Shown: positions 12,451 through 17,702 of the stretch, piece by piece
How positions within the stretch are numbered: position 1 is the first letter of the stretch
Layout: the number at the start of each line of letters is the position of its first letter
From: Alphaproteobacteria bacterium
Lineage (GTDB): Bacteria > Pseudomonadota > Alphaproteobacteria > VGDZ01
Direction: 5' to 3'
Assembly (NCBI GenBank): GCA_016869515.1
Contig: VGDZ01000006.1
Coordinates: forward strand, 12,592-76,591
Length of the DNA stretch: 64,000 nt
Program-made: the position numbers and the translations under genes
Notes under the pieces: model-generated
The model's database searches: none
What the model saw: only the letters and a program-made list of their open reading frames with translations
What the model was told of the DNA's origin: nothing

Positions 12451-13590
12451 TCATTCGGGGGCGTGGAGTCCCGTCGGCGCCCGGATCGCGATGCGGGCGG
12501 TTACGCTCAGGGATGCGGGATCCAGCGCCAGGACTTCGTCGGCGGCGGTCAGCGCGACCATGATCCGGCCGCCGCTCCGGTCGAGCGCCGCCGCTCCCAA
12601 GGCGCGGCCCGGGCGCGGAGTCGCGGCGGCAACAACGCGCCGACGAGCAAGGTCGAGCACCTCGATGCGATCGCCGGCGATGGCGATGGCATGGCCGGGT
12701 TGGGGATGCGCCAAGAGCCGGCCTCCGGGCCGGCTTAGCGGCATTTGTCCGACCAGGCGCCAGTCGACGGCGGAAACCAGGGCGATGGCGGCGGGTTCGA
12801 CGATCGGAATCGCCACCAGTTCCGCGCCGGCCGCCAAGGCCTTGCCGGCGGCGTATTGCCCCTTCAGGGCTACGGCCGCGAACACCCGCCCGATATAGAG
12901 ATCGAGCCCGCGAGCGACGGAAGCGCCAGGTCCGAGGCCGAGCAAATGCTCGCCGTCGGGCAGGGCGACGATCTCGGTCATGACGTCGGGCAGCGGCATC
13001 CGGCGCGGAAGAAAGCGCGGCACGGCGGCGGGCGGCCCGTCATTGCGATAGTCGTGCACCCAGCCGCGATGGGGCGGGTTGTCGCCAAGCGGTATCTCCC
13101 AAACCTCGGCAAGATCGGAAAAACCGACCAAGAAACTCTTGCGCGCGGGCAAGGCAAGCACCGCCGCGGGCGTCGGCGTATGGCCGCCCTCGATGCGCAG
13201 CGGAATGGAATGTCGCTCGGTCAAATCGGCCATCGCCAAGATCGACAGCGAGGGCGGCGCGAGGGTCGCAACCACGACCAGATCGCCGTCTCCCGAGGCC
13301 GCCAAGCCTGCCGGCCGGCCGCGCAGCCGCACCTGACCGACGATCCGGCCGGCGGCCAGGTCGATCCTGACGGCATGGCCGTCTTCAGTGGCGAGGACGG
13401 CCTGGCGTCCGGCCGGGTCGAAGCGGACGCTCGCGAGCGGCGCGGGCAACTGACCGATGTCGATCGCCTGGTCGTCGGCGATGACCGCGAGGTGGCCATG
13501 CTCGCCCATGGCCAGGACGGCCGCCGAGGCGGGCTGGACGAATGCCAGTGCCGCTAACATCGTGACGGTGCGCGACAGCGCTTGGGTCAT
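12451..13590 (-). CDS. nirF: cd1-like 8-bladed beta-propeller protein without a heme c motif (NirF-like)
   Basis: 379-aa protein with signal peptide and no CxxCH. Beta-propeller-like repeats. Positioned in a nirS locus. Confidence 0.55.
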   Translation of the reverse strand: MTQALSRTVTMLAALAFVQPASAAVLAMGEHGHLAVIADDQAIDIGQLPAPLASVRFDPAGRQAVLATEDGHAVRIDLAAGRIVGQVRLRGRPAGLAASGDGDLVVVATLAPPSLSILAMADLTERHSIPLRIEGGHTPTPAAVLALPARKSFLVGFSDLAEVWEIPLGDNPPHRGWVHDYRNDGPPAAVPRFLPRRMPLPDVMTEIVALPDGEHLLGLGPGASVARGLDLYIGRVFAAVALKGQYAAGKALAAGAELVAIPIVEPAAIALVSAVDWRLVGQMPLSRPGGRLLAHPQPGHAIAIAGDRIEVLDLARRRVVAAATPRPGRALGAAALDRSGGRIMVALTAADEVLALDPASLSVTARIAIRAPTGLHAPE

Positions 13591-13604
13591 GATCGGTCCC
13601 GTCT

Positions 13605-13738
13605 AGGGCATGATCGATCTGTCTTGAACCATAGAGTTCAAGACAGATCGCGGATCATGCCCTCGTATCCTGCTCTGGACCGCGATTCACGGTTCATAGG
13701 GAATCGCGGCCGTGATTCCCAATGAACCGATCGCGGTC
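13605..13738. repeat. MITE/REP-like intergenic repeat, copy A (two hairpin modules)
   Basis: Module 1 is an inverted repeat GGGCATGATCGATCTGTCTTGAAC...GTTCAAGACAGATCGCGGATCATGCCC. Module 2 is a nested palindrome GACCGCGATTCACGGTTCATAGGGAATCGCGGCCGTGATTCCCAATGAACCGATCGCGGTC. The same element recurs at four other sites. Confidence 0.85.
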
Positions 13739-14144
13739 TAGGGCCGGACAACGACCGAGCCGACCATGCCCTCCTGTTGCCAATGCGGGCCGCAAAGATA
13801 GCCATGCGTCCCCGGCGGCAAGTGTCGACATGCTCGCCGCCGAAGAGGCGGGCCGATTCCTCGCGTCCGGCGGCCTTGAACCAGACGCTGTGCGACGTCC
13901 GCCGATCGACATTGACGAAGCGCAGCGTGGTGCCGGGCGCGACCGCGATGCTGAGCGGGCAGAAGCTGTGCTTGTACATGGTCACGACCGGAACGCCGGC
14001 GGCGGAACTGGGTTGGCCGAAAACCTCCCGGTAGCGCTGCTCGGCCTCGGCGCAAATCTCGCGCTGCAGCGCGGCCTTGTCGGCCTGGGCGGCGGCGCCC
14101 ATCGCCATCAGGCACCCGACCACGGCCGCGATCGCCCGCTCCAT
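13738..14144 (-). pseudogene. cupredoxin (amicyanin/pseudoazurin-like blue copper protein) with an apparent single-nucleotide frameshift
   Basis: The N-terminal part (signal peptide MERAIAAVVGCLMAMGAAAQA, then ...HSFCPLSIAVAPGTTLRFVNVDRRTSHSVWFKAAG) is in one frame. The C-terminal copper-ligand motif GTHGYLCGPHWQQEGMVGSVVV is in another frame. The junction lies at ~13805-13835, in a G4/C4 run. Confidence 0.55.
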
Positions 14145-14164
14145 GACGCCGCGATCCCGCGGAC

Positions 14165-15906: not shown

Positions 15907-15935
15907 GGGGCGCCGGGGAGAGATCCCGGCGCCCC
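15907..15935 (-). terminator. stem-loop (11-bp GC stem) between nirS and nirT, followed by GUUUUCC on the transcript; possible attenuator
   Basis: GGGGCGCCGGG-gagagat-CCCGGCGCCCC perfect inverted repeat. Partial U-tract only. Coordinates approximate. Confidence 0.35.
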
Positions 15936-15942
15936 GCCGGTC

Positions 15943-17592
15943 CTAGTAGATGTCCTTCTGCGTGTTGTAGACGTTGAACTTGCCGGTCGGCGTGATCATT
16001 TTCGGATCCTTGATCACCGCCTTCAGTTTCAGCGTCGCGTCGTCATAGATGACGATGGCCGACGGATCGGTCTTGCCGGCCCAGACCGAGATCCAGACCT
16101 CGTCGCCCTTTTCGTTGTACTCGGGATGGACGGCGCGCCGTACCGCCTTCATCTCGGGCAGGCCGGCATCCTTGGCGACCGCCAGTTTGACCGGCGCCTT
16201 GGACAGGTTGTTGAGGTCGAACACCACCACCGACTCGGCCAATTCGCGTTCCGGGTTCTGCGGCAGATCGACCCACAGCTTGCGCGACTTGGGATGGGTC
16301 TTGACGAACAGGTTGCCGGCGCCCGGGACCTTGAGTTCCTGCACCACCTTCCAGGCGTTGGCCTTGTGCTTCTCGGGATCGGTGCCGATCAGGGTGACGA
16401 CGTCGGCGCCGAGGTGCCCGGTCGCCCACACCGGCCCGAACTGGGGATGGGTGAAGTTGGCGCCGCGGCCGGGGTGGGGGATCTTCTGGGTGTCGACCAA
16501 GGCCGCGAGCTTGCCTTCCTTGGTGTCGACCACCGCGATCTTGTGCGAGGCGTTGGCGGCCACCAGGAAGTAGCGCTTCGAGGCATCCCAGCCGCCGTCA
16601 TGCAGGAACTTGGCGGATTCGATCACCGTCTGCTTGAGGTTCTTGATGTCGGAATAGTCGACCAGCAGGATCTGTCCGGTCTCCTTCACGTTGACCACCC
16701 ATTCGGGCTTGATGTGCGAGGCGACGATCGATGCGACGCGCGGTTCGGGGTGATATTCGCCGTCCACCGTCATGCCGCGGGTCGAAACCACCTTGAGCGG
16801 CTTGAGGGTTTCGCCCTCGGTGATGACGTATTGCGGCGGCCAGTAGGTGCCGACGATGGCGTATTTGTCCTCGTAGCCCCGGTACTTGGAGACGTCGACC
16901 GAGCGCGCGTCGGCGCCGGCCTTGAGGGTCGCCACCACCGACGGAGTCTCCATCCACATGTCGATCAGGCTGGTCAGCCCGTCGCGGCCGATGGTGTAGA
17001 CGTAGCGCCCGGAATGCGACAGGCGCGAGATGTGGACGGCGTAACCGGTCTTGACGATCGACGAGATCTTCTTGTTGTCGCCGTCGATCAGCGCGACCTC
17101 GCCCGAGTCGCGCAGCGTCACCGCGAAGACGTTCTTGAGGTTGAGCGAGTTCATCTGCTTGGTCGGACGCTTGTCGGGCGGAACGATCAGCTTCCAGCTT
17201 GCCAGCATCTCCTTCAGGCCGTGCTCGGGCGGCACGTCGGGCGCGGTCTGGATGTACTTCGCCATCGCCACGATCTCGTCCTTCGACAGGATGTCGTCGA
17301 AATTGACCATGCCGCCGTCGGTGCCAAGCGCGATGATGCGCTCGAGCCGCTGCTGGCCGAGCTTGGTCATGGCATCGGGCTCGAGGTTCTTGCCGGTGGC
17401 GCCCTTGCGCAGCACGCCATGGCAGCCGGCGCAGCGCTCGAAATAGATCTGCTTGGCCTTGGCGCGATCGTCGGCCGAAAGCTGCACGTTCTGAGCCAGG
17501 ACCGCGGTCGCCGAACCGGCGGTGATGGCGATGCCGGCCGTCAAGCCCAGCAAGGCGCCGCTGATCGACGGCAATTTCCTGATCGATGTCAT
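15943..17592 (-). CDS. nirS: cytochrome cd1 nitrite reductase
   Basis: 549-aa protein with signal peptide, heme c site CAGCHG, and a cd1 beta-propeller domain showing full-length NirS similarity. AGGAGG RBS. Confidence 0.95.
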
Positions 17593-17688
17593 CGTGAATC
17601 CTCCTGTTGCGAATGGCGGCAGCCGAAGATCGGCGCCGCGCGCCTCGGACGAGTGGAAGGGAACTTAAGAACGCGGTGACGCACGTCA

Positions 17689-17702
17689 TTGATTCAAGTC
17701 AA
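17689..17702. promoter_or_regulatory. FNR/NnrR-type box TTGATTCAAGTCAA upstream of nirS
   Basis: TTGAT-N4-GTCAA reads TTGAC-N4-ATCAA on the nirS strand. It lies ~100 bp upstream of the nirS start codon in an AT-richer stretch. A second weaker half-site pair is at ~17754-17768. Confidence 0.45.

Follow-up and report, generated by a model that had tools for sequence, protein, structure and literature searches.

Can a nirS gene that stands apart from the genes for its haem d1 cofactor still belong to a working nitrite reductase system? The question is raised by a locus within 64,000 nucleotides (nt) of contig VGDZ01000006.1 (positions 12,592 to 76,591, forward strand) of the alphaproteobacterial metagenome-assembled genome (MAG) GCA_016869515.1, a 64-kb stretch hereafter called the window. 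Here nirS, which encodes cytochrome cd1 nitrite reductase, is followed by nirTB, encoding a cytochrome in which NirT and NirB are fused, by a cupredoxin gene and by a gene for a beta-propeller protein that we named propX, all four on the minus strand and lying between tRNA-Thr and murA. The explanation to which we lean, with reserve, is that of a relocated, still functional nirS cassette which has lost its cupredoxin and relies on d1 genes located elsewhere in the genome. The features of the locus are listed below, in window positions.

17689..17702, minus strand: FNR/Dnr/NnrR-type box TTGACTTGAATCAA, about 100 nt upstream of the nirS ATG (consensus)
15943..17592, minus strand: nirS, cytochrome cd1 nitrite reductase, 549 amino acids (aa), intact (Pfam)
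14165..15868, minus strand: nirTB, 567 aa, six haem c motifs (Pfam, NCBIfam)
15299..15814, minus strand: NirT (NapC/NirT) domain of nirTB, aa 19-190, including the N-terminal transmembrane helix
14168..15064, minus strand: NirB-like dihaem domain of nirTB, aa 269-567 (EB_dh Pfam match)
13738..14144, minus strand: plastocyanin-family cupredoxin pseudogene, with a 10-nt deletion between 13824 and 13823
13603..13741, no strand assigned: double-hairpin dispersed repeat of about 140 nt, resembling miniature inverted-repeat transposable elements (MITE) or repetitive extragenic palindromes (REP) (repeat copies, RNA fold)
12451..13590, minus strand: propX, NirN-like D1-type beta-propeller, predicted to be periplasmic, 379 aa (Pfam)
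11066..12349, minus strand: murA, flank (Pfam EPSP_synthase, 3e-110)
18248..18322, plus strand: tRNA-Thr(GGT), flank (ARAGORN; Rfam tRNA, 76 bits)

Pfam and ARAGORN found nirS and both flanks where an earlier sequence-only reading of this DNA had seen them. The genes and the order given there (nirS, a NirT fusion, a cupredoxin and a NirF-like propeller) also stood, but the cupredoxin gene proved to be broken and the propeller is not a NirF.

nirS and the haem d1 genes

The window NirS matched Pfam Cytochrom_D1 (3e-152) together with a cytochrome c domain (Cytochrome_CBB3), and aligned end to end with Pseudomonas aeruginosa NirS (1NIR, E=6e-210). The alignment showed that the CAGCH motif, the proximal His182 and the distal His327 and His369 were all kept (P. 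aeruginosa numbering, counted off the phmmer alignment). Its closest counterparts were found in four loci, L001, L003, L008 and L090/L093, with NirS 90-93% and NirTB 77-85% identical to those of the window (90% for the NirS of both L001 and L003). Lineage-specific substitutions, counted only at codons where the remaining sequences agree, gave a nonsynonymous/synonymous ratio of 11/31 for the window nirS, compared with 9/42 and 11/43 in relatives with complete clusters, a pattern indistinguishable from theirs (Fisher p=0.37). The gene is intact and, judged by these counts, under purifying selection. The box upstream of nirS recurs in near-identical form in the relative L001 (TTGACCTGAATCAA), and comparable FNR-type boxes precede nirS in Azospirillum brasilense and Ruegeria, from which we infer that an FNR-type factor regulates the nirS operon; the operon in the window is real and probably induced under anaerobic conditions. 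A scan for sigma-70 promoters returned no match.

Genes for haem d1 biosynthesis were sought in the entire window. Around 60 open reading frames (ORFs), called by third-position GC content, were scanned with Pfam, and none of them encoded a TP_methylase, a Radical_SAM/NirJ or a NirD/L/G/H-type helix-turn-helix (HTH) protein, nor any Cytochrom_D1 protein beyond those of nirS and propX. Likewise, tblastn with the NirE, NirC, NirF, NirDL, NirG, NirH, NirJ and NirN proteins of the closest relative detected no d1 biosynthesis gene in the 64 kb, the NirC and NirN matches being confined to the cytochrome c/propeller regions of nirS and of the 379-aa gene. No remnant of nirE was found in the spacer between propX and murA. 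The claim of the sequence-only reading that no d1 genes lie with nirS was therefore upheld by Pfam and tblastn over the full 64 kb, and no such genes were found just outside the nir locus within that range.

The four closest loci are organised differently, since in all of them the order nirS-nirTB-cupredoxin-propX is followed by nirECFDLGHJN. The position occupied by nirE in these relatives is that at which murA starts in the window, 101 nt past propX. In the relatives nirE is preceded by an FNR-type box of its own (TTGACCGAGATCAA at 12870-12890 in L001 and TTGACGGAAGTCAA at about 11075-11090 in L003), indicating that the d1 operon is a transcription unit separate from the cassette. Relatives also hold a second nirS (nirS2, 580 aa, around 62% identical to the cassette NirS) directly upstream of the cassette or of nirE, at 6187-7929 in L001, at 2131-3873 in L092 and at the starts of contigs L094 and L095; it has no counterpart in the window. 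When L092 was aligned with L001, the flanks matched around a 5.0-kb gap which corresponded exactly to nirS-nirTB-cupredoxin-propX, and in L092, L094 and L095, which come from three samples, nirS2 runs straight into nirE. So clean an insertion or deletion of 5.0 kb indicates that the cassette and the d1 operon are separable units. The trio nirS-nirTB-cupredoxin without any d1 gene within about 10 kb was also found in loci L012, L013, L018 and L022.

The fused cytochrome, the broken cupredoxin gene and propX

The 567-aa product of nirTB matched Pfam Cytochrom_NNT over aa 19-190 (7.6e-74) and EB_dh (1.1e-37), and its NCBIfam napC_nirT match (5e-81, 270.9 bits) fell below the cut-off of 310.6 bits set for the unfused subfamily. 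Direct reading of the sequence revealed a hydrophobic stretch at aa 23-43, the N-terminal membrane anchor, and an Ala/Pro-rich linker joins the NirT part to the NirB-type part. The haem-binding motifs comprise CXXCH at aa 56, 86, 146, 178 and 311, the last of these (CSTCH) belonging to the NirB domain, and CX3CH (CWATCH) at aa 404. The four motifs of the NirT part were invariant across 27 homologues, and the pair CXXCH plus CWxTCH was present in 120/120 of the best 120 homologues, twice in forms of about 940 aa. An AlphaFold model (pLDDT 64.7 overall, 70-90 over much of the C-terminal beta-sandwich) served only to assign a fold class to the C-terminal domain, whose best PDB matches by Foldseek were EbdC (2ivf_C, 4e-9) and NxrC (7b04, 2e-8). 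The two halves also exist as separate genes: in loci L055 and L048, among them a Burkholderiaceae locus, nirS is followed by a split tetrahaem nirT and then by a dihaem nirB encoding a signal peptide, CXXCH and CWETCH, both homologous to the fusion. The proposal that NirT and a NirB-like dihaem protein are fused here is thus supported by the EB_dh fold and dihaem motifs of the C-terminal domain and by its stand-alone homologue after nirT, and the domain search of the 567-aa protein, with its Cytochrom_NNT and EB_dh matches, did not set the C-terminal domain apart from the NirB type. The window protein is identical to GenBank MBM3567669.1, labelled 'cytochrome C552', a name that lends the NirB assignment indirect support, as does the mention of fused NirTB in PMC13086519.

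Most gammaproteobacterial homologues are about 940 aa long and carry two tandem NirB-type dihaem domains, with eight haem motifs in total; these long forms were seen in Sedimenticola, Chromatiaceae, Thiodiazotropha and symbionts, and Terasakiella, as well as in loci L019, L039, L046 and L047.

The cupredoxin gene of the window is a pseudogene. DNA alignment with three intact orthologues of 138 aa showed that 10 nt are missing between 13824 and 13823. The cupredoxin-like ORF begins at 14144 and encodes the signal peptide and the first His ligand, after which it continues into unrelated sequence; the Cys-Gly-Pro-His-x5-Met loop lies in another frame than the upstream His ligand, and the tblastn match to cupredoxin is split over two frames. 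The type-1 copper ligands thus do not share one reading frame in the window, as they do in the intact orthologues. A programmed frameshift was considered and rejected, since on direct reading GTCGACACTTGCC offers no slippery heptamer. Two further assemblies (ENA ERZ27247963 and JGI 3300020197) encode exactly the same frameshifted product of 168 aa, on contigs 99.9-100% identical to the window in nucleotide sequence over 1.1 kb, indicating that the deletion belongs to the population rather than to a single assembly. A scan of JGI metagenomes with a gapped pattern across the deletion gave no match. Consistently, the GenBank accessions of the flanking proteins are consecutive, so no GenBank protein was called for the cupredoxin. 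A gene broken in this way cannot supply the electron donor in the window organism.

As for the intact orthologues, they carry the ligands His...Cys-x2-His-x(n)-Met and match plastocyanin and pseudoazurin structures, the cupredoxin of the nearest relative aligning with plastocyanin 3cvb through all four copper ligands. The Cys-x2-His...Met loop was conserved in all intact copies examined, and the cassette cupredoxin is plastocyanin-like with an N-terminal extension of 40 residues.

Directly after the cupredoxin stop and before propX stands a repeat of about 140 nt, consisting of a pair of long hairpins and delimited by CTAG, at a position where the relatives have just 4-10 nt. At least 5 copies, in both orientations, are present in the window (13603-13741, 23729-23884, 36146-36290, 48450-48605 and 52792-52874). 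Its predicted RNA fold reaches -92.9 kcal/mol (z=-10.4) and an Rfam search of the repeat gave no family match; by its structure and copy distribution it looks like an element of the MITE/REP type.

The 379-aa propX protein matched Pfam Cytochrom_D1 (1.2e-17), and had been taken for a NirF-like propeller in the sequence-only reading. Its best PDB match was NirN 6rtd (6e-22, propeller part only), with NirF 6tv2 at 2e-7; against the proteins of the relatives, blastp gave 1e-30 to 1e-39 for NirN and 1e-10 for NirF; and tblastn of the L001 NirF against the window found no match at 1e-3. Moreover, the relatives carry a propX orthologue alongside a genuine NirF and a genuine NirN, so the NirF assignment was abandoned. 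The sequence diverges rapidly: propX is only about 39% identical to its 384-aa orthologue in L003, where NirS is about 90% identical. A homologue search with the 379-aa protein returned only itself, and an exhaustive HMMER search showed the family to be rare, with 9 representatives at E<=1e-30 among 1.84 billion. On these matches, propX is a fast-evolving NirN-like propeller and not NirF. It has no cytochrome c domain, the segment with the proximal His of NirN is an alignment gap (we take the His ligand residue and the tetrapyrrole-binding segment to be those of the NirS/NirN structures), and there is a family-specific insertion, RGWVHDYRxDGPP. That propX handles d1 as NirN or NirF do seems unlikely. 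In L001 (12119-12805) and L008 (3282-3902) the orthologue is shortened to 228 and 206 aa, respectively, which suggests that propX is decaying or dispensable there.

Competing explanations and their implications

Under the explanation to which we lean, the cassette would have become separated from the haem d1 operon that lies directly downstream of it in the nearest relatives; in addition, the 10-nt deletion has inactivated the cupredoxin gene and the MITE-like repeat has inserted behind it. The retained FNR-type box, the full set of catalytic residues in nirS and its relative-like substitution pattern speak for a cassette still in use, and A. brasilense Sp7 and several MAGs, whose d1 genes are over 10 kb distant, provide a precedent for the separation. 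A functional NirS requires d1 genes elsewhere in the genome, most plausibly beside a nirS2 paralogue as in L092, L094 and L095. From what is known of the family, the membrane-anchored NirT domain would oxidise quinol and pass the electrons through its four haems to the two c-type haems of the NirB-type domain in the periplasm, which in turn would deliver them to the haem c of the cd1 NirS, where nitrite would be reduced to NO. The shuttle in other organisms is presumably the plastocyanin-like cupredoxin encoded alongside, and in the window organism electrons would reach NirS directly from the NirB domain or by another periplasmic carrier.

Several observations weigh against this explanation. 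None of the NCBI-sourced candidates checked among the 120 best NirJ homologues came from this assembly (MBM3567xxx), and the 90% clusters of the relatives' NirS2, NirJ, NirN and NirF contained no member from it; for an incomplete MAG such an absence by accession is suggestive, though not decisive. The cupredoxin pseudogene and the repeat insertion speak of a locus that is not fully maintained, and the nonsynonymous/synonymous count of nirTB was higher on the window branch (19/28) than in the pooled remainder (27/91, p=0.03), although this test is weak because the window branch is also the longest.

These same observations make up the case for a decaying remnant, in which nirECFDLGHJN was lost, or only the cassette was ever acquired, so that no haem d1 is made and the cupredoxin was the first gene to be hit. 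Such decay would account for a frameshift that is repeated in independent assemblies, for a MITE-like insertion within the operon, for the lack of d1 genes in 64 kb and of any traceable to the MAG, for a propX that evolves fast and is truncated in relatives, and for the slightly raised nirTB count. Yet three of the four genes (4.5 kb) are free of stop codons and frameshifts, nirS keeps all its catalytic residues and a substitution pattern like that of the relatives, and conservation extends to the FNR-type box; as MAGs are incomplete, little follows from a bin that lacks d1 genes. We therefore regard decay as possible, and as the less probable course of events.

It is also conceivable, if rather unlikely, that the population keeps an intact, FNR-controlled nirS and nirTB under purifying selection without any of the d1 pathway, either obtaining the cofactor or a precursor from neighbours or putting the proteins to a use that does not depend on d1. 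If so, the window organism, as a natural knock-out, would show that NirTB can do without the cupredoxin that otherwise accompanies it almost everywhere.

Quite improbable is the proposal of the sequence-only reading itself, a compact novel module whose working donor is a blue copper protein in place of cytochrome c551. Gene order and domains are as described there, and the cupredoxin does occupy the position of nirM in the Pseudomonas stutzeri nirSTBM cluster (PMC8954225; family knowledge). As the likely donor in the window, though, it is refuted by the frameshift, which parts the His ligand from the Cys/His/Met loop at a site with no slippery heptamer. Nor are the partners unusual. With a chimeric NirTB+NirJ query, fused NirTB was found in at least 47 loci of species-representative genomes of Alpha-, Gamma- and a few Betaproteobacteria, this MAG not being among the matches listed (best NirTB 63%); in these loci, nirS lay within 600 nt upstream in 46/47 and a cupredoxin gene within 600 nt downstream in 45/46 of the loci with enough sequence. 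Judged from gene order in these loci, the trio nirS-nirTB-cupredoxin is the rule wherever NirT and NirB are fused, and it is present in cultured denitrifiers. Plasmids of Azospirillum brasilense Sp7, of Aliiroseovarius and of three strains of Ruegeria likewise encode the fusion, as a protein search showed, with the annotated order nirS, 'NapC/NirT family cytochrome c' and 'plastocyanin/azurin family copper-binding protein'. The NirT-NirB fusion itself is already known and not new, since it is mentioned for Halomonas sp. 2A (Li et al. 2018, as cited in PMC13086519). In the literature searched, no paper was found that discusses the NirTB-associated cupredoxin or the nirS-nirTB-cupredoxin trio.

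Least probable of all is a chimeric contig joining a nir cassette to housekeeping genes by faulty assembly or binning: the sequence does come from a MAG and its nirS/tRNA-Thr junction is without independent confirmation, but the propX-murA junction is 100% identical in Logan contig L006 (SRR7985589; window 12060-13629), Logan contig L007 (SRR16108672) is 100% identical over propX and ends in the spacer 81 nt before murA, the nirTB-cupredoxin-propX stretch was recovered in the ENA and JGI assemblies, and there is no break in GC composition.

Taken by itself the window matters little, being a recognisable denitrification locus that has one gene broken and no cofactor genes in sight. The trio, in turn, points by inference to a route from quinol to NirS that would not need the bc1 complex and that could bear on the partitioning of electrons between nitrate and nitrite reduction. 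Almost every NirTB system has a plastocyanin-like cupredoxin of its own, and cultured A. brasilense Sp7, Ruegeria and Roseibium have the trio. Furthermore, the clean 5-kb difference between L092 and L001 indicates that d1 biosynthesis need not accompany nirS and its electron donors when these move, a caution against calling denitrifiers in MAGs by nirS alone.

The surroundings of the cassette were also inspected. A tRNA-linked genomic island was rejected, because the cassette is situated 5' of tRNA-Thr and its GC content is not anomalous; among the hallmarks of such islands, neither an integrase nor flanking direct repeats were seen at the cassette. Between the nirS promoter region and tRNA-Thr there is an Arg/Ala-rich ORF of 61 aa (18008-18193, minus strand). 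Elsewhere the window contains genes for housekeeping and transport functions, along with toxin-antitoxin pairs and a Pel-type exopolysaccharide cluster. This Pel cluster (56891-62257) encodes PelG, a PelF-like glycosyltransferase (DUF3492), a small TPR-like protein and a GAF-domain PelD-like protein, and a gene for a methyl-accepting chemotaxis protein (54381-55823) lies near it. Two adjoining toxin-antitoxin pairs occupy 48578-50008, one of PIN/VapC with a FitA-like ribbon-helix-helix protein and the other of a ParE-family toxin with an HTH antitoxin. Thirteen tandem repeats of 33 nt (47420-48046) fall within the ORF at 46354-48369 (minus strand) and encode a long pentapeptide-repeat protein, the C-terminal part of which is a membrane region. 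Finally, an ORF for a membrane protein at 35181-35897 (minus strand) had no Pfam match at 1e-5 and by eye resembles isoprenylcysteine-carboxyl-methyltransferase/NnrU-like proteins.

Comparison with known systems

Among proteins of known structure, propX aligns across the whole eight-bladed D1-type propeller of NirN (6RTD) with 25-26% identity, and more weakly with NirF (6TV2); it differs from NirN in the missing cytochrome c domain, the missing proximal-His segment and the extra insertion. The C-terminal domain of NirTB belongs to Pfam EB_dh (PF09459) and has its best fold matches in EbdC (2IVF_C) and NxrC (7B04_C). These two subunits bind haem non-covalently, as haem b in EbdC, whereas the NirTB domain carries two motifs for covalently bound haem c, CXXCH and CX3CH. 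For a type-1 copper protein as donor to cd1 nitrite reductase there is a precedent in the pseudoazurin and azurin of Paracoccus and Pseudomonas, but these belong to other cupredoxin subfamilies and are not known to be encoded in the nirS operon.

The closest described arrangement is that of P. stutzeri nirSTBM, where nirS is likewise followed by a NapC/NirT tetrahaem cytochrome and then by NirB, the dihaem cytochrome c-552 of the nirSTB transcript, NirT being proposed to hand electrons to NirB and through it to NirS (PMC8954225; also PMC13086519). In the window, by comparison, NirT and NirB form one polypeptide (P. stutzeri NirB being compared by description only), the next gene is a broken cupredoxin in place of cytochrome c551 (nirM), and d1 biosynthesis genes are not adjacent. 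A NirT-NirB fusion downstream of nirS is shared with Halomonas sp. 2A, which the available portion of PMC13086519 mentions in passing, citing there no biochemical work and no cupredoxin partner.

Cultured Alphaproteobacteria provide the nearest full parallel. The same three-gene order is found on plasmid p4 of A. brasilense Sp7 (NZ_CP012918), on a plasmid of Ruegeria sp. THAF33 (NZ_CP045385) and in Roseibium spp., with NirTB proteins 50-57% identical to that of the window and with cupredoxin genes that are intact there and broken here. In Ruegeria and Roseibium, unlike in the window, nirECFDLGHJN follows directly downstream. In A. brasilense the fourth gene encodes a D1-domain protein of 525 aa that, unlike propX, is a complete NirN-like protein, cytochrome c domain included, and strain Sp7 carries its d1 genes on the opposite strand at a distance of about 10 kb.

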